DNA of 46,026 bases from an uncultured Kofleriaceae bacterium (GCA_964617845.1 CAZUAR010000026.1:106821-152846); one strand, 5' to 3'; positions 3,115 to 35,777 are shown, numbered from the stretch's first letter. Notes: generated by a model from the letters alone, not told the origin. A program made the numbers and translations.

Positions 3115-4554
3115 ATGCCTGGTTTTTTCAAACGACTGTTCGGCCGCAGCGACAAGAAGCCGGAGCTTCCCGTCGAGAATCGGCCGCCCGCGCCCGAGCC
3201 GCAGCACCTCGGCAGCGAGGAGGAGACGTTCCTCGCGACGCTCGTGGCGGATCTCGCGGAGGGCAAGCGACGCGACGAGGTCGGCAACGCGAACACGCTG
3301 AAGAAGATCGACGGCGTGTGGAGCTCGGGGCACGAGCGCCTCGCGATCGAGTGGATGGAGAAGCTGCTGTCGATTCCCGAGATCCCGCACGAGTCGACGG
3401 CGGCGCTGCGCGCGGCGCTCGTCGAGCGCTACGAGCAGCGCGGCGAGCTCGACACGGCGATCCCGCACCTCGAGGGCCTGACCGCCGAGGAGCCGCACGC
3501 GTTGCGCGCGCACTACCTGCTCGCCGAGCACGCGCGCAAGAAGGGCGATCACGAGCGCGCGCTGCGCCACTACGAGGCGGTGCTCGGTCGCGATGTCGAC
3601 TACCCGAACGTGCGCGTGCGCGTCGAGCGGTTGCGCCAGCTCGCGGGACGCGCGGCGCCGGTCGCGGGCGAGACGATCGCGGCCGGCGATGTCGCGGGCA
3701 TTCAGGCCGGCGCGCGCTATCGGCTCGTGCGCGAGCTCGGGCGAGGCGCGACGGGCGTGGTGTACCTCGCGCGCGACGCGGAGCTCGAGCGCGACGTCGC
3801 CGTGAAGCTCTTGCACCCGCACCTCGCGGGCACCGAGCGCGCCGATCAGCTCGCGCGGTTCTTCCACGAGGCGCGCGTGATGGCGTCGCTCCGGCATCCG
3901 AACATCGTCGCCGTGCTCGACATGGACGAGCCCTCGCGGCGCATCGTGATGGAGCTCGCCGCGGGCGGCACGCTCAAGGACGTGCTGCGCGAGCGCGGCC
4001 CTCGCCCGCTGCGTCGCGCGATCGAGCGCCACGGGCAGATCCTGAGCGCGCTCGCGGCGGCGCACCGGCGCGGCATCGTGCACTGCGATCTCAAGCCCGC
4101 GAACCTGATGTTCCGGCGCGACGTCGACGGTCCGGGCGTCGAGGTGATGCTCGGCGACTTCGGCGTGGCGCACCTGCCCGACGCGACCGGCGAGACGGGC
4201 GCCGCGGGCAAGCGCGCCGAAGCGGTCGGCACGCTGGCCTACATGTCTCCGGAGCAGCGCCGCGGCGAGCTCACGCCGGCGGCGGACATCTATGCGACCG
4301 CGGTGGTGCTGTACGAGAACCTGACCGCGCGCACGCCGTGGGAGCGTGCGCTGATGGCGGGTGTCCGGAAGGCGGACGATCTGCGACTGCCCGACTTCGT
4401 GTTCGCGCATGTGCCCGCGGCGATCGCCGAGGAAGTGCAGCACCATATCCAGCGCCTGGGCGATCCGGATCCGAGCAAGCGTCCCACCACGGCGCAGGCG
4501 CTCGTCGAGTCGCAGCGACTGCGCGAGCGCTTGATCGCGGCCGGCGCGCCGTAG
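3115..4554 (+). CDS. Serine/threonine protein kinase with N-terminal TPR-like regulatory region
   Basis: Hanks kinase motifs: 'LGRGATGVVYLARD' (G-loop), 'VAVK' (catalytic Lys), 'HCDLKPAN' (catalytic loop), 'DFG', 'SPEQ'. ATG at 3115 lies 5 nt after the FHA gene stop, so the two genes form an FHA/kinase operon. Confidence 0.8.
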   Translation: MPGFFKRLFGRSDKKPELPVENRPPAPEPQHLGSEEETFLATLVADLAEGKRRDEVGNANTLKKIDGVWSSGHERLAIEWMEKLLSIPEIPHESTAALRAALVERYEQRGELDTAIPHLEGLTAEEPHALRAHYLLAEHARKKGDHERALRHYEAVLGRDVDYPNVRVRVERLRQLAGRAAPVAGETIAAGDVAGIQAGARYRLVRELGRGATGVVYLARDAELERDVAVKLLHPHLAGTERADQLARFFHEARVMASLRHPNIVAVLDMDEPSRRIVMELAAGGTLKDVLRERGPRPLRRAIERHGQILSALAAAHRRGIVHCDLKPANLMFRRDVDGPGVEVMLGDFGVAHLPDATGETGAAGKRAEAVGTLAYMSPEQRRGELTPAADIYATAVVLYENLTARTPWERALMAGVRKADDLRLPDFVFAHVPAAIAEEVQHHIQRLGDPDPSKRPTTAQALVESQRLRERLIAAGAP

Positions 4555-7068: not shown

Positions 7069-7749
7069 TCACTTCTTCGCCGGCTGCGCGAGCGCCGGCA
7101 CCTTCGGGTTCACCTCGACCTTGCCCTTGGCTCCGACGTTCACATCCGTCGCACCGTCGAGCCACCCATCCTTGTAATAGATCCGGAGCTTGTAGCTGCC
7201 CTCCGCCACGTCGCCGAGATCGAACTTCCCGCTCTCGTCGACCGACGCGACATACGGCGTGTTCACAACGACGAGCTTCCCCTGGAGGTGCGGCGCGTCG
7301 GTATCCGAGATCGTGTAAACCTTGCCGCCCTCGGTCGGTCGAAACGACTTCGGCCCCGTCGGGTTGATCGGCCCCGCGGGAATCAACTTCGGATCCTCCG
7401 CCGCCACGAGCGTGCGCGCCGTGCGCGACGTGTTCTTGATGACGACCTCGGCGCCCGCGGGCGCGCCGACCACGGGACGCGCGAACGACTCGCCCGGCAG
7501 CTCCCACGTGACCTGCCCCGGCGAGCTCGGCTTGGCGTCGCCCTCGAGCACCACGATCATGTACGGCGTCACCGCCACGGGCTTTGCCGGTGCGAGCGGG
7601 TTCTCGACGCGCTCGAGGAACCCCTTGGTCGCCGGCGGTGGCCGATCGGGCGGTGGCGGCAAGTCGAGCTTGCCCGACACCGAGCCCGCCATCGCCACCA
7701 GCGAAGACCCCGTAACAACGCCAAACACCACGAGACGCAGTGAGGACAT
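7069..7749 (-). CDS. Secreted protein with carboxypeptidase-regulatory-like / Ig-like beta-sandwich domain
   Basis: Signal peptide 'MSSLRLVVFGVVTGSSLVAMAGSVSG'. 'GKFDLGDVAEGSYKLRIYYKDGWLDG' resembles a CarboxypepD_reg fold. It lies 7 bp upstream of the 5313..7061 gene on the same strand, giving a likely operon. Confidence 0.65.
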   Translation of the reverse strand: MSSLRLVVFGVVTGSSLVAMAGSVSGKLDLPPPPDRPPPATKGFLERVENPLAPAKPVAVTPYMIVVLEGDAKPSSPGQVTWELPGESFARPVVGAPAGAEVVIKNTSRTARTLVAAEDPKLIPAGPINPTGPKSFRPTEGGKVYTISDTDAPHLQGKLVVVNTPYVASVDESGKFDLGDVAEGSYKLRIYYKDGWLDGATDVNVGAKGKVEVNPKVPALAQPAKK

Positions 7750-7898
7750 GATGCGATGCAAATCGTAGTGCCCCCGCACTCCCGGCTGCAACCCATGGAG
7801 GGGCCTACTTCATCGCGCCCTCGACCGAACATCGTCGCGGGAGCGCACCGACATCATCATCCGCGAATGCGCGAGCGCGAGATCGTACGCAACCGTAC

Positions 7899-10304
7899 GT
7901 GCGAACGGCCGAGGGTGGCCGCATGTCCGCCGCGGAGTCTCTCGCCGCTCGCCTACGCCGTCCGCTCCCGATCGCGATCGCGTTCGCCGCGGGCATCGCT
8001 CTCGCGTCACTCCTCGTCGACGCGACCTCGCTCGCAGCGACACGCCTGATCGGACTCGGCGCGGGCGTCGGCTTCGTCTTCGCGTCGATGCGCGACCGCC
8101 GCGTCGTGCCGGCCATCGCGCTCGCCGTCGGCCTGATGATCGGCACGCGGCCACCGGATCGGATCCCGACCGGCGTGACGATCGACGACCGCACGACCGA
8201 CCGCGTGATCGGCGACATCGCCGGCCCGATCATCACGACCTCGCACGGCACCGGCGCCCGCCTCGACACAGACGACGGCGGATCGATCTGGCTGTGGCTC
8301 GATCGAGAGACATCACTCGCGCGGCGCGAAGACGACCGCGTATCCGCCGGCCGGACAGGCTCCGCGTCCCTGATTCCGGGCATGCGCGTCGAGGCGAGCG
8401 GACGCGCGAAGACACCGGGTGGATCGCGCGGGCCGGGCATGGTTCCGCGGCGCGGCCCGACCGTCGAGATGGCGGTCGACGCGATCGCGATCGTCGACGA
8501 CGCGCCCGGGCCGATCGATCGCGCGTGGCGGTGGGCGCGCGAGACGCAGATCGCGTGGGGCGAGCGGATCGACGACGCGGGCGGTGACGCGATCGCGCGC
8601 GCGGCGCTGCGCGGCATCGTCACCGGCGATCGCAGCGCGGTCCCCGAGGAGCTCGATGCGCGGTGGCGCGCCGTCGGCATCTTTCACGTGCTCAGCGTCA
8701 GCGGCTTGCACCTCGCGGTGATCGCCGGGCTCGCGTTCCTGCTGTTGCGCAAGCTCGTCGCAGGATCTCCGTGGGGCGGGCGCGTGAGGCCCGCGCGGTG
8801 GGCGGCGCCACCGGCGCTGGTGCTCGCGATCGTCTACACGCTCGTCACCGGCGCGCAGCTCGCGACGCTGCGCGCGCTGATCGTCATCGCGCTGATGCTC
8901 GTCGGCGCGATGCTCGATCGACCGCTGCGCTTGCTCGACGCGCTCGGGGTCGCGGCGATCGCGATCCTCGTGTGGCGGCCGATGGACCTGTTCGATCCGT
9001 CGTTCCAGCTGTCGTTCACGGCGACGATCGTGCTCGCGCTCGTGAAGCGACCGATGGCGACCGGCGTGCGGGGCTGGATCGCGCGCGGCGTCGCCACCTC
9101 GATGTGGGTCACGATCGCGACCGCGCCGATCACCGCCTATCACTTCCATCAAGTGCAGCCGAGCGGCGTCGTCGGCAACCTGCTGCTCACGCCGCTGCTC
9201 GAGGTCATCGCGTTGCCCGTGGCGCTCGCCGGCATCGCGCTCGGTCCGATCGGGTGGCCGCTGGTGCGCGTCGCCACCGAGCTCGTCGGCGTCGTCGATC
9301 ACCTCGCGGCGCTCGGCGCGCACGTCGCCATCGTCGGACGCGTCGCGATCGCGAACCCGATCGTGCTCGTGGCGCTGGTGGCGGTGTCGCTCGCGCTCGT
9401 CGCCGCCAAGAAGCGCGCGTTCGGCTGGATCGTGCTGTGCGCGGTGTGGACGCTCGCGCGATCGCCTGCGCCGATCGGCTCGCTGCGCGTGACGTTCCTC
9501 GACGTCGGTCAGGGCGACGCCGCGATCATCGAGCTGCCCGACGGTGGCGTGTGGCTCGTCGACGCGGGCGGACACGCGAATGCCGGGAGCCTCGCGCGCG
9601 CGAGCGCGACCGGCGCCGTCATCGACCGCGCGCTGGCGAGCGCGGGCCACGACCGCGTGGACATCGCGATCGTCTCGCATCCGCACCCGGATCACTACGC
9701 CGGGCTCGCCGGCATGACGATGCCGATCGGCGAGCTGTGGTCCGCCGCGGAGGTCGAGGCGGACGCCGGTGCCAGCGCGCGCGCCTTCGATCGAGTCGCG
9801 CGGATGCTCGTCGAGCGCGGTACGCGATGGGTGCATCCGGCGCTCGGCGTCGCGGCCGAGCGCGCGGGCGTCGCGCTCGTCGTGTGGGCGCCGCGCTTCC
9901 AGCGTGTCGAGGGAGGCGCGCTCGTGGCGGCGGCGGATCCCGTGCGCACGGTGAACGACAACTCGCTCGTCGTGGAGGTGCGCTTCGCGGGGCGCTCGAT
10001 CGTGTTCGCCGGAGACCTCGAGCTCGAAGGCGAGGAGCTCGTCGCCGCCGCGGGCCTGCGCGGCGCGGACGTCGTGAAGGTCGCGCATCACGGGAGCCCG
10101 ACGTCGTCGTCGCCGATCTTCGTCGACGCGCTCGCGCCCGAGATCGCGGTCATCTCGTGCGGGCGCGGCAACGCGTTTGGCTTTCCATCGCCCGACGTGG
10201 TCGCGCGGTGGCGCGCTGCGGGCGCGGAGGTCGCGCGGACGGACCTGCGCGGCGCGGTGACCATCGTGGTCGATTCCGGCGGGGCGTTGGCGATGGACCG
10301 CTGA
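7899..10304 (+). CDS. comEC: DNA internalization-related competence protein ComEC/Rec2 with C-terminal metallo-beta-lactamase domain
   Basis: Polytopic membrane core (multiple hydrophobic helices). C-terminal MBL motifs 'SHPHPDHYAGL' and 'VAHHGS'. The domain order is typical of ComEC. Confidence 0.85.
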   Translation: MRTAEGGRMSAAESLAARLRRPLPIAIAFAAGIALASLLVDATSLAATRLIGLGAGVGFVFASMRDRRVVPAIALAVGLMIGTRPPDRIPTGVTIDDRTTDRVIGDIAGPIITTSHGTGARLDTDDGGSIWLWLDRETSLARREDDRVSAGRTGSASLIPGMRVEASGRAKTPGGSRGPGMVPRRGPTVEMAVDAIAIVDDAPGPIDRAWRWARETQIAWGERIDDAGGDAIARAALRGIVTGDRSAVPEELDARWRAVGIFHVLSVSGLHLAVIAGLAFLLLRKLVAGSPWGGRVRPARWAAPPALVLAIVYTLVTGAQLATLRALIVIALMLVGAMLDRPLRLLDALGVAAIAILVWRPMDLFDPSFQLSFTATIVLALVKRPMATGVRGWIARGVATSMWVTIATAPITAYHFHQVQPSGVVGNLLLTPLLEVIALPVALAGIALGPIGWPLVRVATELVGVVDHLAALGAHVAIVGRVAIANPIVLVALVAVSLALVAAKKRAFGWIVLCAVWTLARSPAPIGSLRVTFLDVGQGDAAIIELPDGGVWLVDAGGHANAGSLARASATGAVIDRALASAGHDRVDIAIVSHPHPDHYAGLAGMTMPIGELWSAAEVEADAGASARAFDRVARMLVERGTRWVHPALGVAAERAGVALVVWAPRFQRVEGGALVAAADPVRTVNDNSLVVEVRFAGRSIVFAGDLELEGEELVAAAGLRGADVVKVAHHGSPTSSSPIFVDALAPEIAVISCGRGNAFGFPSPDVVARWRAAGAEVARTDLRGAVTIVVDSGGALAMDR

Positions 10305-19247: not shown

Positions 19248-20039
19248 ATGCGACGGATGGCCCTGCTCATCGCCGCAGCACTGGTGTTCGCCTCGGCGAG
19301 CCCCGTGATGGCGGGCTCGAAAGCAAATGCGACCCAAGCTCGCAAAGCCAAAGCCAAGGCCAAGGGAACGAGCAAGCATACCCGGAAGTCCGCGAACGAC
19401 AAGGGCACGATGAAGCAGTGCTCGACGCGCAAGGGCAAGCGCAAGTGCAAGCGCGTCGCGGTGTTCCAGGGCCACGGAGCGTCCCAGTCGTCTCTCCGTA
19501 AAGAGGAGCTGCCCAAGCCCTCGGGCAACGTGTGGCTCTATGCCGAGAACCTCGCCGAAGAAGCGAAGGTGAACATCTACAAGCCGGACGGAACGTTCGA
19601 CGACGCGGCGCTCGCCAAGCTCGACGAGCTGTTCCGCTGCCGCCAGACCGGTGAGGTCCGCGCGGTTCGTCCCGAGCTCTACGAGCAGCTGTCGCGGATC
19701 TCGGATCACTTCGGCGGCGACAAGCGCGTCGAGCTCATCAGCGGCTTCCGCTTCGCGGAGCGGTCGTCGAGCCGCCACTTCCACGCATCGGCGATGGACA
19801 TCCGCATCAAGGGCGTCTCGATCCGCGAGATGTACAAGTACGCCGAGTCGCTCGACGGCGGCGACATGGGCATCGGGCTCTACCCGACGAGCAACTTCAT
19901 CCACGTCGACTACCGCGCGCCCGGCGAGCGGAGCTATCGCTGGACGGACTGGTCGGGACACAGCAAGGGCAAGAAGAGCAAGAAGTCGAAGAAGAAGCCG
20001 ACGAACCGCACGCAGCCCGCGCGCAAGCCGGTCTCGTAG
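19248..20039 (+). CDS. Secreted DUF882/YcbK-like peptidase M15A family protein with Lys-rich N-terminal region
   Basis: Signal peptide present. 'RHFHASAMDIRI' and 'GIGLYPTSNFIHVDYR' match the YcbK/DUF882 metallopeptidase fold. The leader region lies in a lower-GC intergenic stretch. Confidence 0.75.
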   Translation: MRRMALLIAAALVFASASPVMAGSKANATQARKAKAKAKGTSKHTRKSANDKGTMKQCSTRKGKRKCKRVAVFQGHGASQSSLRKEELPKPSGNVWLYAENLAEEAKVNIYKPDGTFDDAALAKLDELFRCRQTGEVRAVRPELYEQLSRISDHFGGDKRVELISGFRFAERSSSRHFHASAMDIRIKGVSIREMYKYAESLDGGDMGIGLYPTSNFIHVDYRAPGERSYRWTDWSGHSKGKKSKKSKKKPTNRTQPARKPVS

Positions 20040-20368
20040 TGTCCGACGACATCCCCGAGCTATCCGTGGCCGAGGTCGCGGCTCGCCTCGGCACGCCTGG
20101 CTTTCACGTGTTCGACAACAACGGACACGGTCGCTGGAAGCGCAGCCACGTGCCGGGCGCGAAGAACCTCAACGCGTACGCGATCGAGCGAAGCGACTTG
20201 CCCGAGGACACGAGCGCGACGCTCGTCTTCTACTGCTCCGGCCCTGGTTGACACAGCTGCCACGCGGGCGCCGGGCGCGCCCTCGAGCTGGGGTTCACGA
20301 ACGTGTTCGTCATGCCCGACGGCATCGCCGGCTGGGAGAGGGCGAAGCAACCCGTCGAGACGGGCTAG
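20039..20368 (+). CDS. Single-domain rhodanese-like sulfurtransferase interrupted by an in-frame TGA at 20249-20251 (selenocysteine candidate or pseudogene)
   Basis: GTG start overlaps the upstream stop ('TAGTG'). The frame reads '...LVFYCSGPG-TGA-HSCHAGAGRALELGFTNVFVMPDGIAGWERAKQP'. The 109-codon length equals a typical rhodanese, and the conserved C-terminal 'GF.NV....GI.GW' follows the TGA in frame. Confidence 0.5.
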
Positions 20369-22545
20369 TCACACGGAACGTCGACGATGCGCGGCTCGGA
20401 ACGATCGAGCGTCGTACCGTCGCCGAGCTGTCCGTAGTGATTGCGGCCCCAGCACACGAGGTCATCGTCGGTCGTGATCGCGCACGTGTACTCGCCGCCG
20501 CTCGCGATGGTGCGCGCCGAGACACCGGGGACGGGACCGGGCGCGCGCGCCGACGTGTAGCTCGGGTCGGCGAGCATGCCGAATGCGTTGTTGCCCCAGC
20601 ACGTGAGCTCCGTGCCCGTGCGCGAGCAGACGTGGCTGTCTCCGACGGCGATCTCGTCGGCGAACAGGCCGAGCGCGATCGGGCGGCGGTTGACGACGTC
20701 GGTGCTCGCGCCGACGAGCTGTCCGTTCTCCGCGTTGCCCCAGCACCAGACCTGGCGCGCCGGATCGATCGCGCAGGTCATGCGATTCGCGAGCGAGAGC
20801 GCGGTCGCAGACGCGAGGTCGACGACCGGCGTCGCGACGAGCGCGTCCGTCGTGGTGCCGCTGCCGAGGCGCCCATCGCCACCCGCGCCCCAGCACGCCA
20901 CCGCGCCGGTCGCGGCGTCGATCGCGCACGTGTGACTCTCGCCGGCGAGGATCGCGCGAACGGAGGACACGCCGACGACCGGCGTCGGAGCCGCGGTTCG
21001 CGCCGAGGCGTTGGAGCCGATCAGCCGACCAGCGCCCCAGCATCGCGCGACGCCTGCCCCGTCGCGCGAGCACGTCATCTCGCCACCGGCGGTGACCTGC
21101 GCGACGTCGGTGAGATCCGGCACCGCGGTGGGTACGAGCGCTTCCGGCGGATCGTCGAAGCCGAGGCGGGCCTCGTTGAGGCCCCAGCATCGAAGCGTCG
21201 CGTCGCCGGTGACCGCGCATGCGTGCTGGGTCCCCATCGACGCGCGCGCGATCCCCGTCGTGACCCGCGTCGGTACGAGCGGTGATGGTGTGTCGCCCGC
21301 GCCGTTCTGGCCGAACGTGCTCGAGCCCCAGCAGATCACGCCGCCGGCCACGACGCCGCAGGCGTGAAAACCGCCGAGCGCGATCTCGGTGACTCCGTCG
21401 ATCGACGAGTCGGTCGCGGTCGCCGTGTCCCGCGGCGAGTTACCGCCGTTGCCGAGCTCGCCACCCTCGTTCTGTCCCCAGCACGCGACGGTGCCGTTCG
21501 CGCGACGAGCGCACGACGAGTTCTGCCCGATCGTCACCTCGACGGCGTTCGCGAGGTTCATCACCGTGACCGGCACCGAGCTCGACATGGAGTCACCGTT
21601 GCCGAGGCGGGACACGTTGCGGCCCCAGCAGCGCGCGCTGCCGTTCGCGAGCACGGCGCACGCGTGGACCGATCCGACGTCGATGTCGACGACGTTCATC
21701 GCGGGCAGCGACACGGCGACGGGGACGTTGCTGTCGGCCTCGGGCTCGCCGTCGCCGAGCTCTCCATTCGCGTCGGAGCCCCAGCAGAACGCGCGATCGG
21801 CCTGATCGATCGCACACGTGATCTGATCGCCCGCGGCGATCCGCTTCGCGCGGAAGTTGTTCGCGACGCGCGCGGGCCGCATCGCGCCGTTGTTGTCGCC
21901 GGTGCCGAGCTGGCCCTGCCCGTTCGCACCCCAGCACCACACGTCGCCGTTCGTGTCGATCGCGCACGTGTGGTTCACCCCCGTCGAGATCTGGATCACC
22001 GCGCCGAGATCGACGACGGGCGTGGGCGCGACGCGATCGATCGAGGTGCCGTCGCCGAGCTGGCCGTTGCGGTTCTTGCCCCAGCACTTCGCGACACCGC
22101 CGTCGATCGCACACGTGGAGGCGGTACCGGCGGACATCCACGACGGTGCGGCGAGGACGATCGAGGCGGGCACGCTCTTGCTGATCGTCGTGCCATCGCC
22201 GAGCTGGCCGTAGGAGTTGTCGCCCCAGCACCACGCCGTGCTCGCGTTCCATGCACACGTGTGGCGATCGCCCGCGGTGATATCGCTGGCGCCGATCGTG
22301 ACGAGCGGCCCCGCGACGGTCGATGACAGGCGGCGCCCGATCCCGAGCTGTCCATGCGTGTCGTCGCCCCAACAATAGAGCGCGCCGTCTTCGCGGACGA
22401 CACAGGCCGTGAACTGGCCGAGCGCGAGCTGCGCGACGCATCCAGGGCCCGTGCCACCGTCACCGGGAGCAACACCCTCGAAGCCGATCCGCCCGCAGCT
22501 CGCGAGCAGCACGACCAGTGCCCACCGACCCAGCATCGATCCCAT
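20365..22545 (-). CDS. RCC1-repeat (seven-bladed beta-propeller-like) lipoprotein
   Basis: More than 10 repeats of 'CWG.N..GQLG.G' ('ALYCWGDDTHGQLGIG', 'AWCWGDNSYGQLGDGT', and others). Start at ATG 22545 gives 'MGSMLGRWALVVLLASC' (lipobox). The ORF portion upstream of that start is non-genic. Confidence 0.75.
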   Translation of the reverse strand: MGSMLGRWALVVLLASCGRIGFEGVAPGDGGTGPGCVAQLALGQFTACVVREDGALYCWGDDTHGQLGIGRRLSSTVAGPLVTIGASDITAGDRHTCAWNASTAWCWGDNSYGQLGDGTTISKSVPASIVLAAPSWMSAGTASTCAIDGGVAKCWGKNRNGQLGDGTSIDRVAPTPVVDLGAVIQISTGVNHTCAIDTNGDVWCWGANGQGQLGTGDNNGAMRPARVANNFRAKRIAAGDQITCAIDQADRAFCWGSDANGELGDGEPEADSNVPVAVSLPAMNVVDIDVGSVHACAVLANGSARCWGRNVSRLGNGDSMSSSVPVTVMNLANAVEVTIGQNSSCARRANGTVACWGQNEGGELGNGGNSPRDTATATDSSIDGVTEIALGGFHACGVVAGGVICWGSSTFGQNGAGDTPSPLVPTRVTTGIARASMGTQHACAVTGDATLRCWGLNEARLGFDDPPEALVPTAVPDLTDVAQVTAGGEMTCSRDGAGVARCWGAGRLIGSNASARTAAPTPVVGVSSVRAILAGESHTCAIDAATGAVACWGAGGDGRLGSGTTTDALVATPVVDLASATALSLANRMTCAIDPARQVWCWGNAENGQLVGASTDVVNRRPIALGLFADEIAVGDSHVCSRTGTELTCWGNNAFGMLADPSYTSARAPGPVPGVSARTIASGGEYTCAITTDDDLVCWGRNHYGQLGDGTTLDRSEPRIVDVPCD

Positions 22546-22588
22546 CGTAACACCGCAGGACCACTCGATCTCTACGGCGTAAATTGGT

Positions 22589-23566
22589 GTGACCAGCGCC
22601 CCATGGGCGTGGCAGTATCCGGCCGCTGTGAGCACCTGGTGGAACCAGATCGTCGCTGCTGTCCCGGCGAGCGCGCGTCCCGTGCTCGCGGCGCACGACG
22701 GTCTGGGCAAGAAGGTCGCGGCGGATCTCGCGGCGGTGCGGAAGAAGTGGCCGGAGGGAACGATCACCGACGCGCAGTTCGCCGACGCGCTCGCCCAGCG
22801 AATCGCATCGCAGAAGGATCTCGCGCCCGCGCTCGGCCGCCTGCGCGTCGAGGACCTCTATCTCGCGCTGTGGTGCGCGACCGGTGACGCGCGCGCGATC
22901 TCGGTGTTCGAGCAGGTGCATCGCTCGGACCTCGACGCGGTGCTCGCGCGATTCCGGCGGCTCGCGGTCACGGGAGACGAGCTACGGCAGACGCTGCGCA
23001 TCAAGTTGTTCGTGAAGACGGACACGCGGCCCGCGCAGATCGCGAGCTACTCGGGGTTCGGCTTCTTGCAGAACTGGCTGCGCGTCACGGCGCTGCGTGC
23101 GCTCGTCGACATCGCGCGCAGCGAGAAGGCGCGCAAGCTCGAGGAGCTGCTCGCCGACGACGATCTGATGGGGATGCCCGAGCTCGGGCCCGACATCGCG
23201 GCGAAGTATTCGCGCGAAGAGGTATCGCGCGCGATCAAGGCGGCGTTCGCGCGTGCGGTCGCCGGCCTCGCGCCGCGCCAGCGCAACTTCCTGCGGCACG
23301 CGCAGGTCGACAACCTGACGCTCGACCAGATCGCGAACCTCTACAACATCCACCGCGCGACGGTGGCGCGCACGCTCGCGGCGGCGCGGCAGGAGCTGAC
23401 GGAGATGACGCGCAAGGAGCTCGGCATCCAGCTCGGCATTCCCGACGACGCGCTCGACAGTGTCGTCCGGGCGGCGGACAGCCGCATCGATCTCTCTTTG
23501 TCGCGCGTGTTGAAGGCGCCCGAGCTGGCGGACGGTTCCGAGAGCGAGCTGGACTCGGGGCGATGA
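22589..23566 (+). CDS. ECF-type sigma-70 family factor with extended N-terminus (Ser/Thr-kinase-associated ECF class)
   Basis: Region-2-like segment 'VEDLYLALWCATGDARAISVFEQ'. Region-4 HTH 'LAPRQRNFLRHAQVDNLTLDQIANLYNIHRATVARTLAAARQEL'. GTG start lies directly after a stop codon. The next gene encodes an anti-sigma/kinase. Confidence 0.7.
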   Translation: MTSAPWAWQYPAAVSTWWNQIVAAVPASARPVLAAHDGLGKKVAADLAAVRKKWPEGTITDAQFADALAQRIASQKDLAPALGRLRVEDLYLALWCATGDARAISVFEQVHRSDLDAVLARFRRLAVTGDELRQTLRIKLFVKTDTRPAQIASYSGFGFLQNWLRVTALRALVDIARSEKARKLEELLADDDLMGMPELGPDIAAKYSREEVSRAIKAAFARAVAGLAPRQRNFLRHAQVDNLTLDQIANLYNIHRATVARTLAAARQELTEMTRKELGIQLGIPDDALDSVVRAADSRIDLSLSRVLKAPELADGSESELDSGR

Positions 23567-23576
23567 CCGTCAGCCC

Positions 23577-25694
23577 ATGAGCGGCGACACGCAGTCGGGA
23601 GAAACCTTCGCGAACCTCGCGAGCGACGGTGCGTGTCCGAGCGAGGACGAGCTCGTCGCGATGATCGAGGGCGCGCTGTCGGCGCAGCAGCTCGCGGCGA
23701 TCGAGAAGCACGTCGCGACGTGCGAGACCTGCGCGTCCGTCGTCGGCGATCTCGGGGCGCTCGGCGACGCCGGCAAGCCGCGCGCGATCGATCGCTACCA
23801 GCTCGATCGCCGCATCGCCGCGGGCGGCATGGGCGAGGTGTGGGCCGCGTGGGATCCGAAGCTGCGCCGCGAGATCGCGGTCAAGCTCGTCAAGCCCGAG
23901 CGCTCCGACGACACGCGCGAACGCGATCGCTTGCTGCGCGAGGCACGCGCGCTCGCGCGGCTGACGCACCCCAACGTGATCGCGGTGCATGACGTCGGCG
24001 AGCAGGACGGCGAGGTGTTCATCGTCAGCGAGCTCGTCTCCGGCGACACGCTCGCGAATCGCGGTGGGCCGTCGGCGGACTGGCGCAATGTCGTGCGGCT
24101 GTACTCGCAGGCGGCGCGCGGGCTCGCGGCCGCGCACGCCGCGGGCCTCGTGCACCGCGACGTGAAGCCCGCAAACCTGCTACTGGGCACCGACGGGCGC
24201 GTGCGCGTCGCGGATTTCGGTCTCGCGGTGCGGAGCAAGACGACGTCGCCGCAGGAGACACCGGACGTCGACGCCAGCCTCAGCCTCGGTCAATCGATCA
24301 CGCAGCGCGGGCACATCGCAGGAACGCCCGCGTACATGGCGCCGGAGCAGCGCGCCGGCCTCAAGGTCGAAGCGCCCGCGGATCAGTTCGCGCTGTGCGT
24401 CGCGCTCGGCGAGGGGATCAGCGGTCGACGTCCGCCGATGGAGGTCACCGCGAAGGACATGATCGCGTTCGTCGCCGAGCGCCGCCCGATGGAGCCCGAC
24501 CTCGAGACCCTGTGCACGATCATCTCGCGCGGCCTCGCGGTGATGCCGGCGGAGCGCTTCCCCGACATGACGTCGCTCGCCGATGCGCTCGACGAGCTGG
24601 TGCCGCCGATCAAGGTGAGCGGCGAGCACCGCGCGGTGCGGACGCCGACCGGCGGAATGCGCGTGCTCCGCGCGCCGACCGGCGGGCAGCCGATCGTGCC
24701 GCCGTCGAACGACGTGCCGGATGTTCCGCCGACGGAGAAGAGCCGGCCGCGCTGGAGTGGCACGCTCGTGATCGCGGGCGTGGTCATCGTCGCGGCGGTG
24801 GCGGTGCTGATCTTCCTCGTGACGCGCGATCGAAAGCGCGGGCTCCAGGTCGCGCCGTCGCCGAGCTCGATGCCGGATCCGACGCAGATCCCGATGCCCT
24901 CGCCACCCTCGGATCACCAGGCGACGTCGCCCGAGGACAACGTGGTACCGGTGCTCGACGCCGCGCCCGCGCCGGGCGAGAAGACCGTCCCGCGCGAGAT
25001 GGTGCCGCCACCCCAGAGCACCGCGCCCGCCTCGAAGGGCCAGGCCCCGGGCGTCGCGCCGATCGCGCCGCCGCCCTCGACCGGCGCTCCGTCGACGGGC
25101 CCGTCGGCGATGGACGACATCGAGCACCTCGCGCCCTCGACGACGTCCGCGCCGGCGACCGCGCCCTCGGGGGTGACGCTCGACATGGTGCACGCCGCGA
25201 TCAAGCGACGCGACGGCAAGGCGTGCCGCGCCGCGCTCGCGAAGCTGACCGCGCCGCCGCCGTCGGACTTCCGCGTCGCGAGCGCGCACGCCGTCTGCGA
25301 GATGGTGGCCGGCAACTGCGAGGGCGGGACGCGCGAGCAACGGGCGCTGAACGTGCGCGAGGGAACGCCGCCCGACTCCGCGGAGATCATCGCGGACCTC
25401 TACTGTCCCGTCGACGGCAGCAGCGATCCGCAGGTGCGCCTGCGCCGGCTCGCGAAGCAGATCGATCTGTTCGCGACGAGCTTCGACTGCGACGACTACC
25501 TGCCCCACGCGCGCGCCGCGGCGAAGGTCGCGACGACGGACCTCGATCGCCGCATCGTCGGCGGGGTGCTGCGCGACATCGCGTTCTGCTACAGCAGGCG
25601 CGAGGACTGCACGACCGCGCGCAAGATCCTCGACGAGGCGAAGGTGTTCATCCCGGGCTTCCGCCTGAACGAGCTGACCGCCGCCTGCCGGTAG
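23577..25694 (+). CDS. Ser/Thr protein kinase with N-terminal zinc-anti-sigma (ZAS) motif, one TM segment, Pro-rich linker and extracytoplasmic Cys-rich domain
   Basis: ZAS motif 'EKHVATCETCASVV' (H-x3-C-x2-C). Kinase motifs 'GGMGEVW', 'VAVKLV', 'HRDVKPANLL', 'DFG', 'APE'. TM segment 'LVIAGVVIVAAVAVLIFLV'. The C-terminal region holds about 12 Cys. Confidence 0.8.
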   Translation: MSGDTQSGETFANLASDGACPSEDELVAMIEGALSAQQLAAIEKHVATCETCASVVGDLGALGDAGKPRAIDRYQLDRRIAAGGMGEVWAAWDPKLRREIAVKLVKPERSDDTRERDRLLREARALARLTHPNVIAVHDVGEQDGEVFIVSELVSGDTLANRGGPSADWRNVVRLYSQAARGLAAAHAAGLVHRDVKPANLLLGTDGRVRVADFGLAVRSKTTSPQETPDVDASLSLGQSITQRGHIAGTPAYMAPEQRAGLKVEAPADQFALCVALGEGISGRRPPMEVTAKDMIAFVAERRPMEPDLETLCTIISRGLAVMPAERFPDMTSLADALDELVPPIKVSGEHRAVRTPTGGMRVLRAPTGGQPIVPPSNDVPDVPPTEKSRPRWSGTLVIAGVVIVAAVAVLIFLVTRDRKRGLQVAPSPSSMPDPTQIPMPSPPSDHQATSPEDNVVPVLDAAPAPGEKTVPREMVPPPQSTAPASKGQAPGVAPIAPPPSTGAPSTGPSAMDDIEHLAPSTTSAPATAPSGVTLDMVHAAIKRRDGKACRAALAKLTAPPPSDFRVASAHAVCEMVAGNCEGGTREQRALNVREGTPPDSAEIIADLYCPVDGSSDPQVRLRRLAKQIDLFATSFDCDDYLPHARAAAKVATTDLDRRIVGGVLRDIAFCYSRREDCTTARKILDEAKVFIPGFRLNELTAACR

Positions 25695-26136: not shown

Positions 26137-26694
26137 CTACTTGCACGACGAGCAGCTGGTGGTGCGCGGCGAGAAGCTCGTCACCTTGCCGCGGGCATCG
26201 AGCGCGATCACGCAGCACTCGTCGAACATCTCGCGCAGACGCGCCCGACCGCGCTGCACGCGGGACTTCATTCCCGACACCGAGATCCCGACCATGTCTG
26301 CCGCTTCACGCGTGGTGAGGCCCTCGAGCTCCACGAGGGTCACCGCCTCGCGATACGGCGACGGCAAGCGAGCGACGAACAGCGACACGCAGCTCGAGAG
26401 CTCGCGCGACGCGTCGCGATCGTCGTCGTCGATCGGCTCCGCGGGGAGCTCGTCGGCGGCCTCGGCGAGCGGATGCCGGGCCTTGCTGCGCACGAGCTCG
26501 GCGACAGAGCTACGGGCGACCTGGAACAACCACGACGTGAACCGCTCCTCGTCGCGGAGCGAGCCGAGCCCGCGCTGCATGCGGACGAAGACGTCTTGCA
26601 GCACGTCCTCGACGTCGGTCGCGGGCACCTGACGCGCGACGAACGGCCGCAAGCGCGCCGCGACGTCCTCCCACAGCGCGGGCGATGCGTTCAC
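26137..26694 (-). CDS. ECF sigma factor with C-terminal Cys-rich extension (CorE-like, ECF44-type), embedded in the ars operon
   Basis: Region 2 'DVLQDVFVRMQRGLGSLRDEERFTSWLFQVARSSVAELVR'. Region 4 'EGLTTREAADMVGISVSGMKSRVQRGRARLRE'. C-terminal 'ECCVIALDARGKV...SCSSCK' (4 Cys). GTG start overlaps the arsM stop (GTGA), and the gene ends 5 bp before arsN2. Confidence 0.65.
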   Translation of the reverse strand: MNASPALWEDVAARLRPFVARQVPATDVEDVLQDVFVRMQRGLGSLRDEERFTSWLFQVARSSVAELVRSKARHPLAEAADELPAEPIDDDDRDASRELSSCVSLFVARLPSPYREAVTLVELEGLTTREAADMVGISVSGMKSRVQRGRARLREMFDECCVIALDARGKVTSFSPRTTSCSSCK

Positions 26695-27521
26695 GAGCAG
26701 CACCCCGGCCCGCAGCAGGGCTCGTCGGCTCTCGGCTTGCGCGCCGTGATCGTCGCCGACGCGACGAACTTCTCGATGCCCGGCAGCCACGAGCCCACGA
26801 TCTCCGCGCTGCGCGGAACGATCGTGACCTCGATGTCCGTGAACCCGACGGTCGCGAGCATCCCTCGCAGCTCCTCGATCGGCGCCGCCCCCGAGACGCA
26901 CCCCGCGAGCGCCGCGGCTTGGTTCTGGAGCTCGAGCGGGATCGGGCCGGTCGCCACGACGTCGCTGATCGCGAGCCGGCCATCCGGCTTGAGGACGCGG
27001 AACGCGTCGGCGAAGACGGCGCCCTTCTCGGGCGACAGGTTGATCACGCAGTTCGAGAGAATCACGTCGACGGAGGCATCGGCCACCGGAAGGTGCTCGA
27101 TCTCGCCGAGCCGGAAGTCGACGTTGGTCGCGTTGACCTTGCGCGCGTTGGCGCGTGCGAGCGTGACCATGTCCGGGGTCATGTCGACGCCGATCACCCT
27201 GCCCGTCGGGCCTACCTGATGCGCGGCGATGAAGCAGTCGAACCCTCCGCCCGCGCCGAGGTCGAGGACCGTCTGCCCCGGCCGAAGCGACGCGATCGCG
27301 GTCGGGTTGCCGCAGCCGAGCCCGAGGTCCGCCCCTTCGGGGACCACGCCGGTCTGGTCGTCGCTGTAGCCGAGGACCCGCGCCGCCGTACCGCCGGCAC
27401 TCCCCGTCATGCCCGGCGCGCAGCATCCGGGTGCGCAGCCCGCCGATGCACCGGCGCGTGCCACGCTTCCATAGTGGTCGCGGACGGTCCCGCGGATGTC
27501 GTCTGCCTTCGTGTCGCTCAT
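26691..27521 (-). CDS. arsM: Arsenite S-adenosylmethionine methyltransferase
   Basis: ATG 27521 with AGGAGG 6 nt upstream. N-terminal Cys cluster '[10 protein letters not shown]'. SAM-MTase motif I '[11 protein letters not shown]'. C-terminal 'CCGPGCC'. All are typical of ArsM. Confidence 0.85.
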
Positions 27522-27605
27522 CGTTACCTCCTGTCGGTGAAGACGGGGACCGCTCCGAAAGGACGCAGACTTTCGGCCTCGGTCGGCGCCGGTTGACGTC
27601 ATGCG

Positions 27606-27627
27606 GACATAACGATATCTGTATGTC
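27606..27627. promoter_or_regulatory. Candidate ArsR operator: perfect inverted repeat GACATA-N10-TATGTC in the arsM/arsC divergent region, overlapping the arsC start
   Basis: Read directly. It is the only AT-richer stretch in the 101-bp divergent intergenic region between arsM (start 27521, minus strand) and arsC (start 27623, plus strand). Confidence 0.4.
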
Positions 27628-28063
27628 TATGACATCCGCGGCGCGACCGCCAGGCCTCCTGTTCCTGTGCGTCGCCAACTCGGCACGCAGCCAGATGGCG
27701 GAGGGCCTCGCGCGCTCGATCTTCGGCGATCGCGCCACGGTACAGAGCGCGGGAAGCGCGCCGTCGCGCGTGAACGAGTACGCGATCGAGGCGATGCGCG
27801 AGGTCGGCGTGGATCTGACCGCGCACCGCTCGAAGTCGGTCGACTCGATCGATCCGGCGAGCGTCGATCTCGTGATCACGCTGTGCGCCGAGGAGGTGTG
27901 CCCCGTGTTCCTCGGCACGACGCGTCGCCTTCACTGGCCGATTCCGGATCCGGCGAGCTCCGATCCGGCGCTCTCGCGCGACGAGATGCTCGCCCGCTTC
28001 CGTGCCGCGCGGGACACCATTCGCCAGAAGCTCGAACAGCTCACCGTCGACGGCCTGACCTAG
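27623..28063 (+). CDS. arsC: Arsenate reductase, LMW-PTP (thioredoxin-coupled) family
   Basis: P-loop '[16 protein letters not shown]' (C-x5-R-S). Downstream Cys residues sit in 'TLCAEEVCP'. About 146 aa from ATG 27623. Confidence 0.85.
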
Positions 28064-28070
28064 GAGCGCG

Positions 28071-28442
28071 ATGCAATCGACCCTGACCACCGAAGACCAT
28101 GGCGTGCGGCCGCTGACCAAGCTGTTCCGCGCGCTCGGCGACGAGACACGCATGCGGATCGTCGCGCTGCTCGCGCACGGCGAGCTGTGCGTCTGCCACA
28201 TCGAGACCGCGCTCGAGCTGAGCCAGCCCAACGTCTCGCGCCACCTCGGCATCCTGCGAATGGCCGGCATCGTCGACGCGCGTCGCGATGGAACGTGGGT
28301 CTACTACAAGCTCGCCGAGCAAGAGCACGACGCCGTGCGCGAGGTGCTCGCGACGCTGACGAAGGCCTTCGGTGCCGAGCGTGCGATTCGCGCGGACCAC
28401 GCGAAGCTCCGCAAGTCGTGCGGTCCCGACGCATGCAAGTGA
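28071..28442 (+). CDS. arsR: ArsR/SmtB family metalloregulatory repressor
   Basis: 'ELCVCHIETALELSQPNVSRHL' combines the As(III)-binding ELCVC motif with a winged HTH. GGAG RBS lies 4 nt upstream. Confidence 0.9.
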   Translation: MQSTLTTEDHGVRPLTKLFRALGDETRMRIVALLAHGELCVCHIETALELSQPNVSRHLGILRMAGIVDARRDGTWVYYKLAEQEHDAVREVLATLTKAFGAERAIRADHAKLRKSCGPDACK

Positions 28443-34208: not shown

Positions 34209-35777
34209 TCACTTGCACGCGCGCGTGTAGCCGCGCGAGCACGCGGTCTCGCGTAGCTCTGCCGCGCGCGCTCGGTCCGCGGCGTCGCCGTGCTGGAGCA
34301 TGTCGGCCGCGTGGTAGCAGCCCGCGGGGTTCGTCGTGCACTGCCGCTCGTAGAGCTGCAACGCGCGCGCGCGATGCTCGGGCGACTCGGAGCTCAAGTG
34401 CTCCGCGAGGAGCGCGCACGCCGTCCCCGGCTCGAGCTCGCAGCCGCGCTCGAGGAGCTTCACCCACGCTTCGCGCGTGTAGCGCTTGTCGCCGTGGTTC
34501 GCGTTGCGGCGCACCCACTGGCCGGCGAGCACGCACGCGGACGCGTCGCCGAGCGTGCAGCCCTTGGACAGAAACTCGACGGCGACGAAGCGGCGCTCCT
34601 CGTTGCCGTCACTCGCGACGTACAGCTCGCGGCCGTAGAGGCGACACGCGATCGCCTCGTTCGCCTCGCACGCACGCTTGCAGGCATCGCCGCCTTGCTG
34701 CTGGCACGGGTGATTCGCGCGCGCGGACGCGGTCGACGTGCTCGCTCGGGTCGTGTCCGGTGTGCGCGTGGCGATCACGATGATCGTCACCGCGATCGCG
34801 ATCGCGAGCCCCACGGCGACGCTCGCGACGAACAGCGGGCGCCGCGCGCGCGACGGCCGCTCGAGCGCGGTCGGCTTCTCGACGCGCTCGGGGACCCACG
34901 ACGGGCGCTGCGCGAGCAAGTTCGACTCGCGGTTCGCGAGGTGTCGCTCGATCGCGCGCAGCTCGGCCTCGACCTGGCTCGCCTGCGCGGTGCGGCGCTC
35001 GGGCTCCTTCTCGAGCAGCGCCATGATCAGCGCGTCGAGGCGCACGGGCACCTCGTCGCGCAGCGAGCGCGCGGGCGGTGGATCGCGGAGCAGCAGCTGC
35101 GCGAGCACCTCCATGGTCTGCTTGCCCTCGAACGGCGGACGCCCCGTGCAGCACTCGTAGAGCAGCGCGCCGAGCCCGAACACGTCCATCGCGGCGGCGG
35201 GCGTGGCTGTGCCCATCGCTTGCTCGGGTGCCATGTAGCCCGGCGTGCCGATCAGCTGGCCGGTCTCGGTCAGCCCGTGCGTGACCGCGGTGTCCTTCGC
35301 GATGCCGAAGTCGATCAGCGTCGCGCGCGCGGGCTGGGAGTCGACGAGCATCACGTTGCTCGGCTTGACGTCGCGATGGACGATCGAGTGCGCGTGTGCG
35401 TGGGCGAGCGCGCCCGCGATGCGGATGCCGATCGCGAGCGTGTCCGCGATCGACAGCGGACCGCGGACGAGGCGCGTCGCGAGAGACTCGCCGTCGAGCC
35501 ACGCCATCGCGAGGTACGCCTCGCCCGAGCGTGTGACGCCGTGGCCGACGTACGCGACGATCGCGGGGTGGTCCATGCGCTCGAGCGTCTCGGCCTCGAG
35601 CGTGAACCGCGCCTCGACGCCCGGATCGCGCAGCACCTTGAGCGCGACGTGCGCGCCCGACTCGCGATCGATCGCGCGGTGCACGCGGCCCATGCCGCCC
35701 TCGCCGACCTTGTCGCCCACGTCGAAGCGCCGGGCGAACGTGTCGTCCGCAAGCACCGCCCGCAGGCCGTCGGCCAC
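34209..35777 (-). CDS. Ser/Thr protein kinase with TM segment and extracytoplasmic Cys-containing Sel1/TPR-like repeats
   Basis: Kinase motifs 'GEGGMGRVHRA', 'VALKVL', 'HRDVKPSNVML', 'DFG' and 'GTPGYMAPEQ'. TM 'LFVASVAVGLAIAIAVTIIVIA'. C-terminal repeats are of 'AC..L...Y..G' type. The start is uncertain: there is no in-frame ATG upstream of the G-loop, so I chose GTG at 35777. Upstream of that the ORF is antisense to the divergent sigma gene. Confidence 0.65.
   Translation of the reverse strand: MADGLRAVLADDTFARRFDVGDKVGEGGMGRVHRAIDRESGAHVALKVLRDPGVEARFTLEAETLERMDHPAIVAYVGHGVTRSGEAYLAMAWLDGESLATRLVRGPLSIADTLAIGIRIAGALAHAHAHSIVHRDVKPSNVMLVDSQPARATLIDFGIAKDTAVTHGLTETGQLIGTPGYMAPEQAMGTATPAAAMDVFGLGALLYECCTGRPPFEGKQTMEVLAQLLLRDPPPARSLRDEVPVRLDALIMALLEKEPERRTAQASQVEAELRAIERHLANRESNLLAQRPSWVPERVEKPTALERPSRARRPLFVASVAVGLAIAIAVTIIVIATRTPDTTRASTSTASARANHPCQQQGGDACKRACEANEAIACRLYGRELYVASDGNEERRFVAVEFLSKGCTLGDASACVLAGQWVRRNANHGDKRYTREAWVKLLERGCELEPGTACALLAEHLSSESPEHRARALQLYERQCTTNPAGCYHAADMLQHGDAADRARAAELRETACSRGYTRACK

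Follow-up and report, generated by a model that had tools for sequence, protein, structure and literature searches.

The stretch of DNA analysed here, 46,026 nucleotides of an uncultured Kofleriaceae bacterium (GCA_964617845.1 CAZUAR010000026.1:106821-152846, hereafter the window), carries a two-gene unit made up of a gene for a sigma factor of the extracytoplasmic function (ECF) type (GTG 22628..23566, + strand) and a gene for a membrane Ser/Thr kinase (23577..25694, + strand), with a gap of 10 nt between the sigma stop codon and the kinase ATG. The N-terminus of the kinase is, by its conservation and its profile matches, a zinc anti-sigma domain (ZASD). As far as we could find, the locus is a member of a very large module that is mechanistically uncharacterised in the literature, and that combines what is seen in ZASD anti-sigma factors with what is seen in kinase-regulated ECF sigmas. 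The first-pass annotation of the window, made from its sequence, had picked out three genes (the sigma, the kinase and a divergent RCC1 protein), all of which are found, with the kinase 10 nt 3' of the sigma; its proposal that an ECF-type sigma is cotranscribed with a membrane Ser/Thr kinase is supported by this short gap and by the family matches of the two proteins.

A zinc anti-sigma domain at the N-terminus of a membrane kinase

The ZASD occupies aa 20-62 of the 705-aa kinase (23634..23762, +) and has a CHCC arrangement of zinc ligands, C20-x24-H45-x3-C49-x2-C52. The H-x3-C-x2-C portion of it, which the first-pass annotation had noticed, reads H45-VAT-C49-ET-C52, and C20 is the fourth ligand, which in class I ZASDs is a Cys or His of helix 1 some 23-26 residues upstream. 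An HxxxCxxC motif precedes the kinase domain in 114 of 120 homologues; the six exceptions include a partial sequence cut short at its N-terminus and several proteins of another architecture, with WD40 for example. A Cys exactly 24 residues before the His is present in 109 homologues, that is in 109 of the 109 that reach this position, the remaining motif-bearing homologues having no upstream Cys in the segment tested and several of them beginning at a downstream Met (MVEGAL...). When 35 diverse N-termini are aligned, the four ligands alone are invariant (C8, H33, C37 and C40 of the alignment), and the Pfam zf-HC2 model (PF13490) matches every one of these 35 sequences. For the kinase of the window itself, the N-terminus taken alone scores 26.6 bits against zf-HC2, whereas in the context of the full-length protein it scores 21.8 bits, just below the cut-off of 22.2.

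A profile built from the 35 homologues and compared with the PDB matches RslA (3HUG_B, E=2.8e-6) and DdvA (8RLZ, 8.9e-5), followed by ChrR (0.11) and RsiW (0.15), and it matches no kinase chain at E<=10. The NCBIfam RsrA model also matches the kinase weakly (E 0.005). These conservation patterns and profile matches identify the N-terminus of the kinase as a genuine ZAS-type anti-sigma domain that is conserved among homologues, and for which the alignment to DdvA and RslA suggests a pattern of three helices. The first-pass annotation had taken a lack of conservation of the motif in orthologues as grounds for giving up its reading of this region; the motif is conserved, and the reading is not refuted on these grounds.

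The ZASD is followed by a Hanks-type catalytic domain (aa 72-338, 23790..24590, +; Pfam Pkinase, 9.8e-33) in which the motifs K103, HRDVKPAN193, DFG213 and APE255 are intact. The catalytic motifs are kept in 118-120 of the 120 homologues, and the PDB matches of aa 71-338 are to PknA, PknE and PknB (6e-40 to 1e-30, with Mycobacterium tuberculosis PknA at 6e-40); the domain is predicted to be active. Beyond it lies a single transmembrane helix (aa 397-415, 24765..24821, +; Kyte-Doolittle 19-residue maximum of 3.36 at aa 397), then a Pro/Ser-rich linker reaching to about aa 534, and finally an all-alpha, TPR-like extracytoplasmic domain (aa 535-705, 25179..25691, +) that is the presumed sensor. 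Its AlphaFold2 (AF2) model has nine helices and a pLDDT of 93.3, and Foldseek returns weak TPR matches to MamA, p67phox and NprR (E ~0.06, TM ~0.36); paralogous ZAS-kinases often have canonical TPR repeats. The domain contains eight Cys that are nearly invariant among homologues, which bears out the Cys-rich extracytoplasmic domain of the first-pass annotation and fits with four periplasmic disulfides. The most natural candidate ligand would be a protein or peptide. In outline, as judged from sequence, the protein has the layout of a classical membrane anti-sigma factor (ZASD, membrane helix, sensor) into which a kinase domain has been placed, after the putative sigma-binding part and before the membrane.

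The sigma factor and its conserved motifs

The sigma factor (312 aa) is a member of NCBIfam TIGR03001 (Sig-70_gmx1, 'RNA polymerase sigma-70 factor, Myxococcales family 1'), a family of 3,309 clusters at 50% identity (E<=1e-30), nearly all of which are ~300 aa long, with matches that cover most of the sequence. Its score is 197.5 bits (cut-off 154.6) over aa 64-309 of the 325-aa open reading frame, and the general ECF model TIGR02937 is matched with 45.5 bits, just above the cut-off of 42.9. Pfam sees region 4 only, with Sigma70_r4_2 and r4 above cut-off and no sigma2 match detected in the protein at E<=0.01. The top Foldseek matches of its AF2 model (pLDDT 87.6) are all ECF sigmas (SigL, RpoE, AlgU, SigK, SigH and SigW), sigma4 of the model matching SigL with a TM of ~0.8. 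The protein thus has sigma2 and sigma4 without sigma3, the composition of group 4 (ECF) sigmas, and is atypical for an ECF sigma in its ~72-aa N-terminal domain and ~40-aa C-terminal tail. The N-terminal domain (aa 1-72, 22628..22843, +) is a helical extension that includes an R-W-P motif, is kept in orthologues and paralogues and is modelled as five helices with a pLDDT of 95-97. The ECF structures found by Foldseek align over ~190 columns only, which would correspond to sigma2-sigma4 and leave this extension unmatched.

Region 2.2 of the sigma reads V114-T-G-D117-E118-L-R-Q121-T (22967..22993, +) and aligns as the equivalent of DxxDxxQE, with E118 and Q121 invariant in the aligned orthologues and paralogues. 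Family-wide residue counts, here and below, were taken from 150 diverse sigma representatives (31-54% identity), region 2.2 being anchored on the invariant Gln. In this sample, position -4 (D117) is D/E in 126 sequences (84%) and Ser in a single one, and position -3 (E118) is D/E in 148 (99%). As this acidic pair is kept, neither phosphorylation nor charge restoration should be needed for the sigma to bind core polymerase, and a sigma that binds core unaided would make an inhibiting (sequestering) partner more necessary, not less.

A further motif, D-S285-R-I-D-L-S290-L-S-R-V-L (23477..23512, +), follows sigma4, in an additional helix near the C-terminus that the AF2 model places at aa 273-295. 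L289, S290, L291, R293 and L295 are invariant across the aligned orthologues and paralogues. Among the 150 representatives, the residue at 285 is Ser in 137, R293 is kept in 121 and L295 in 125, and position 290 is Ser or Thr in 147, Ser-to-Thr being the sole exchange allowed. The family-wide pattern is S-x-Φ-D/E-Φ-S/T-Φ-x-R-Φ-L, and we regard the helix as a candidate phospho-acceptor or docking element.

The first-pass annotation had labelled the pair ECF43-like, and had described its kinase-as-anti-sigma arrangement as one known from Myxococcota and Planctomycetes. ECF43 sigmas are about 190 aa long. The group, with EcfP and EcfK, is defined by linkage to a Hanks kinase and by an uncharged sigma2.2 (QTTA) that replaces the acidic DAED and in which phosphorylation of a Thr restores the charge (PMC8999054, PMC8103513, PMC13147305). 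The kinase-associated sigmas of the EcfP/PknT and EcfK/PknS pairs are directly phosphorylated (PMC8999054, PMC13147305), and kinase-associated ECF groups are typically without anti-sigma factors (PMC7826278). Of these features, the sigma of the window shares the nearby gene for a Hanks-type kinase; its sigma2.2 reads T115-G-D117-E118, the acidic residues being those of most of the family as counted above, and the co-encoded kinase bears a ZASD. The ECF43-like label should therefore be dropped in favour of TIGR03001. As for the arrangement being known, the literature that we found on zf-HC2/ZAS with kinases, on TIGR03001 and on the myxobacterial kinome does not describe a ZAS-kinase architecture, although a prior description is still possible.

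Association of the sigma and the kinase in related loci

The association of the two genes was examined in 41 related loci retrieved with the sigma, the neighbours being scored by tblastn. A ZAS-kinase is encoded directly 3' of the sigma in 34 of these, and two more have a kinase-domain match without a ZAS match. The ZAS-kinase is found ~2-3 kb downstream on the opposite strand in another two (L029 and L036), and the last three loci are on contigs that break off at the sigma gene or shortly beyond it. The ZASD is thus encoded beside an ECF sigma and cotranscribed with it, as shown by the 10-nt gap in the window, by the 34 loci and by distant paralogues. These paralogous ZAS-kinases (37-48% identity) are likewise near sigmas: the genes of two of them (P0085 and P0102) overlap by 4 nt preceding genes for TIGR03001 sigmas that score 180.9 and 179.1 bits. 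Within 3 kb of two distant representatives of the sigma, too, a ZAS-kinase is encoded, in one case after an intervening gene (P0250) and in the other divergently (P0300).

At four loci (L021-L023 and L028), the sigma is 63-66% and the ZASD 46-66% identical to those of the window, whereas the kinase is of a different subfamily (33-36%) with a long TPR region. This kinase swap suggests that the ZASD travels with the sigma, albeit in four loci only.

One apparent sigma-kinase fusion (P0025, 1090 aa, L045 4001-7273) was rejected as a frameshift artefact, its junction being Arg-rich and out of frame and its 3-Mb contig containing other split genes. Read-through 'fusions' of this kind in the protein database are not usable as Rosetta-stone evidence.

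Start codon and putative promoter of the sigma gene

The first-pass annotation placed the sigma start at GTG 22589, 44 bp from the start of the divergent RCC1 gene. The reading frame is open from this GTG to 23566 (+), but it is GTG 22628, followed by x-x-W-W, that is kept in 22 of 22 aligned loci, seven of which have an in-frame TAA 12 nt upstream of it, and most database homologues start at this same position. The true start is almost certainly GTG 22628, with GTG 22589 an over-extension, which leaves 82 nt, in place of 44, between the sigma and RCC1 start codons.

The same 22-locus alignment, anchored on the GTG, contains an extended -10-like element, TGG-CAGTAT (22610..22618, +), which is a candidate promoter of a leaderless sigma-kinase mRNA. 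Its family pattern is TGnCAnnAT, 9 nt upstream of the start codon, and it forms an A/T-rich hexamer within DNA that is ~70% GC, the value for the window. No Shine-Dalgarno sequence is seen between the element and the GTG in this alignment. Paralogue loci have a similar TGGCAyCAy-N6-GTG, read from a conserved upstream PWHH translation. Because a conserved extended -10-like element is present without a Shine-Dalgarno sequence, we read the mRNA as probably leaderless and TGnCAnnAT as its candidate extended -10 promoter. Its conservation suggests that leaderless expression driven by a housekeeping promoter is typical of the TIGR03001-type sigma family. Reading the conserved TGGCA as a sigma-54 promoter was rejected, since the -12 GC does not have the spacing that such promoters need and transcription would be predicted to start within the coding sequence.

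How the kinase may control the sigma

We infer a model, to which we give an even chance of being right, in which the ZASD-kinase holds the sigma and phosphorylation releases or activates it. A housekeeping-type extended -10 promoter would give a leaderless mRNA of the operon, and control of the sigma would consequently be post-translational. Like its homologue in Myxococcus xanthus DdvA, the three-helix ZASD would bind the cognate sigma through sigma2 and sigma4, and so tether it at the membrane beside the kinase active site. Binding of a periplasmic ligand, probably a protein or peptide, by the TPR-like domain would activate the kinase, which would then phosphorylate the tethered sigma and so release it to RNA polymerase. 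The best candidate phosphosites, from their family-wide conservation, would be S285 and S/T290 in the C-terminal helix of the sigma. Alternatively, the target could be the ZASD or the linker of the kinase itself, by analogy with PknB acting on RshA.

Several observations weigh against this model. The ZASD is without a helix 4 and only ~10 residues separate its helix 3 from the kinase domain, so that its sandwiching between sigma2 and sigma4 might be sterically constrained. The DdvA ZASD is itself a CHCC three-helix bundle of ~70 residues that lacks helix 4 and binds both sigma2 and sigma4 (PMC11506125), and the short ZASD of the kinase could therefore suffice. One TPR-type ZAS-kinase (P0117) has no adjoining sigma, which means that the ZASD may have other uses. 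We had also considered that the ZASD might track the sigma better than the kinase domain does, and this was rejected: over 37 loci, the Spearman correlation of sigma identity is 0.55 with ZASD identity and 0.74 with kinase-domain identity. S285 and S290 could be structural residues of their helix instead of phosphosites. As for the promoter, conservation is the sole basis of that reading, and a scan of 22300-22800 with an Escherichia coli consensus made no call, the -10-like element included.

Two other explanations would do without sequestration followed by phosphorylation. The pair could work in the manner of ECF43 only, with a sigma unable to bind core RNA polymerase until phosphorylated and a ZASD that is a docking module and does not inhibit. 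Direct phosphorylation is how EcfP/PknT and EcfK/PknS work (PMC8999054, PMC13147305), and the conserved S/T motif of the sigma tail together with an intact kinase would fit such a scheme. Furthermore, PknS has an uncharacterised N-terminal region of 81 residues, predicted to form 3-4 antiparallel helices (PMC13147305), which could be a degenerate docking domain; a PknS structure is not among the 25 PDB matches to the kinase at E<=1e-20. We nevertheless find this explanation unlikely, as the uncharged sigma2.2 that is the hallmark of ECF43 is absent, the positions of D117 and E118 being acidic in most of the 150 family representatives, and as a CHCC domain homologous to the sequestering domains of RslA and DdvA exceeds what docking needs.

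The CHCC cluster could on the other hand be a redox or zinc sensor like those of RsrA and RshA, oxidation of which would release the sigma or switch the kinase, the main substrates of the latter lying elsewhere. The ZAS domains of RsrA, RslA and ChrR do respond to oxidants (PMC4598750, PMC11506125), the weak NCBIfam match of the kinase is to RsrA, and all four zinc ligands are invariant. Many ZASDs use zinc structurally only, however, and neither a large conserved periplasmic sensor nor an active kinase domain is needed for a purely cytoplasmic switch. Moreover, no thioredoxin or redox genes are conserved nearby in the 41-locus tblastn survey, and we consider such a switch to be a long shot.

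The model of a sigma that is held and then phosphorylated could be extended into a hybrid, third mode of ECF control. A receptor kinase fused to a ZASD would sequester its sigma and would also phosphorylate the C-terminal S-x4-S/T helix of that sigma, release being gated by phosphorylation and not by proteolysis, and the PknS-type N-terminal helices of ECF43 kinases would be degenerate anti-sigma domains that give specificity. This extension is speculative and we think it somewhat doubtful, but, if true, it would be a general answer to the question of how bacterial Hanks kinases choose their sigma substrates. ECF sigmas and Hanks kinases are two major bacterial signalling systems, and reviews treat anti-sigma sequestration and kinase activation as alternatives. 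The module described here, with thousands of sequence clusters in Myxococcota, joins both on one polypeptide, beside a sigma that keeps its core-binding acidic patch. Should the underlying model be true, it would define a phosphorylation-gated anti-sigma factor, with a concrete candidate phosphosite motif and a testable explanation of substrate recognition by sigma-directed kinases.

The divergent RCC1 gene and its variable slot

The gene divergent from the sigma (20365..22545, - strand, from an ATG) encodes a 726-aa RCC1-repeat lipoprotein, as the first-pass annotation had said and as its open reading frame, Pfam matches and lipobox confirm. The Pfam matches are to WD40_RLD (8e-153), RCC1 (1.5e-78) and RCC1_2 (4e-73), with 7-10 RCC1 repeats that probably make up a double beta-propeller, and the N-terminus, MGSMLGRWALVVLLAS followed by Cys, has a signal peptide and a lipobox (LLAS before the Cys). 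The orthologous loci share, by tblastn, the order isoleucyl-tRNA synthetase (IleRS), dCMP deaminase, M15 peptidase, variable slot, sigma and kinase. The RCC1 gene occupies the slot between the M15 peptidase and sigma genes (19248-20039 to 22628 in the window).

The contents of this slot differ even between close relatives. At the locus whose sigma is 94% identical to that of the window (L002), the sequence aligns to 19901-20445 and then jumps to 22542-22666, 2.1 kb of the RCC1 gene having been lost and its start codon and last ~27 codons being all that is left of it. As this remnant is kept, the RCC1 gene was in the slot before the L002 lineage split from that of the window. Another locus (L001, sigma 95% identical) shares both flanks and has a different insert of 5 kb, with an unrelated protein and another kinase, and at two loci (L003 and L009) the sigma promoter comes straight after the peptidase gene. 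A small rhodanese-like gene is found in the slot at seven loci (L006, at ~7620-7950, L008, L010, L012, L016, L017 and L024). The peptidase-sigma slot is, from these alignments, a hot spot of gene gain and loss, of which the RCC1 gene is a lineage-specific accessory occupant.

The RCC1 lipoprotein had been proposed as a regulon member of the sigma or as a partner presenting a ligand to the periplasmic domain of the kinase. The RCC1 and sigma start codons do share a common intergenic region, the lipoprotein and the sensor domain are both extracytoplasmic, and the L002 remnant places the gene in the slot before the two lineages diverged. Against this, none of the 41 related loci has an RCC1 gene within 8 kb of the sigma, so that synteny is not conserved, even though nearly all of these loci retain the sigma-kinase pair; the gene has been largely lost in L002, the slot holds other genes in L001 and a rhodanese-like gene in seven loci, and it is empty in L003 and L009. 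A role of this lipoprotein in the regulon or in ligand presentation is accordingly very improbable. Divergent neighbours in such genomes can be lineage-specific insertions, and a synteny check is needed before they are called regulon members.

Two further observations were made in this slot. The rhodanese-like open reading frame, which is absent from the window, contains a conserved in-frame TGA (FYCSGPG-TGA-HSCH(A/T)GAGRA) with the protein conserved on either side of it, and is from its sequence a candidate selenocysteine (UxxC) rhodanese. At one locus (L005, ~1640-1740), ~8 copies of a ~10-nt unit (GTCCGTGGCC) are repeated in tandem, immediately 5' of the sigma promoter region.

Other genes of the window

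The genomes most closely related to the window are metagenome-assembled and bear the labels Kofleriaceae, Haliangiales or Myxococcales. The window encodes another two Hanks-type kinase domains, at 3715-4338 (+) and 35127-35729 (-), with 37% and 33% identity to the catalytic domain of the ZAS-kinase; a search of the window with the ZAS N-terminus and the TIGR03001 sigma as queries gave no match to either at these two genes. A scan of the window with Rfam gave 0 matches.

A second ECF sigma gene, SigZ/CorE-like, is found at 26137-26694 (-), its product ending in a Cys-rich tail (...CCVIALDARGKVTSFSPRTTSCSSCK). The first 4 nt of this sigma gene overlap the 3' end of the gene for the arsenite methyltransferase ArsM (26691-27602, -), and ArsC (27431-28063) and ArsR (28071-28442) adjoin the two, the whole region spanning 26137-28442. 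This SigZ/CorE-like sigma, of a metal-sensing type and inside an ars cluster, may be arsenic-responsive.

Comparison with known systems

Among the closest known systems is DdvS/DdvA of M. xanthus (PDB 8RLZ and 8ROT), an ECF sigma with a transmembrane ZASD anti-sigma factor that has a large enzymatic TPR-CHAT periplasmic domain. Both DdvA and the kinase have an N-terminal CHCC ZASD without helix 4 (~70 residues in DdvA), one transmembrane helix and a TPR-containing or TPR-like periplasmic domain; they come from the same phylum, and DdvA is among the ZASD profile matches given above. In contrast to DdvA, the protein of the window has its ZASD separated from the membrane helix by a full Hanks kinase domain (~270 aa), and it has a small Cys-rich TPR-like module in place of TPR-CHAT. 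Release of DdvS is thought to be proteolytic, whereas phosphorylation is the likely output of the kinase, and DdvS is of another sigma family, the sigma of the window being a TIGR03001 protein with N- and C-terminal additions.

As is the case here, the ECF43 pairs (EcfP-PknT of Vibrio parahaemolyticus and EcfK-PknS of Xanthomonas citri) consist of an ECF-type sigma encoded beside a transmembrane Hanks kinase with a periplasmic sensor. A helical N-terminal region precedes the catalytic domain in ECF43 kinases too (that of PknS described above), and phosphorylation of the sigma is the expected signal. The ECF43 sigmas differ in having QTTA, activated by phospho-Thr, where the sigma of the window has TGDE and its family keeps the acidic pair, and neither PknS nor PknT is reported to have a zinc anti-sigma motif. 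At ~310 aa, the sigma of the window is also longer, having an N-terminal domain as well as the conserved S/T helix at its C-terminus.

A ZAS anti-sigma factor, an ECF sigma and a Hanks kinase also act together in M. tuberculosis, where phosphorylation of the ZAS anti-sigma factor RshA by PknB weakens its binding to SigH (PMC8999054, PMC13147305). Those are three separate proteins, with a pleiotropic PknB encoded elsewhere, whereas the ZASD and the kinase of the window are one polypeptide in an operon with the sigma. Finally, RsbW and SpoIIAB resemble the kinase in that one protein is both an anti-sigma factor and a Ser kinase, acting by partner switching. They differ in their GHKL ATPase fold, unrelated to a Hanks kinase with a ZASD, in targeting group 3 sigmas with an anti-anti-sigma factor as the substrate, and in being cytoplasmic and without a sensor domain.

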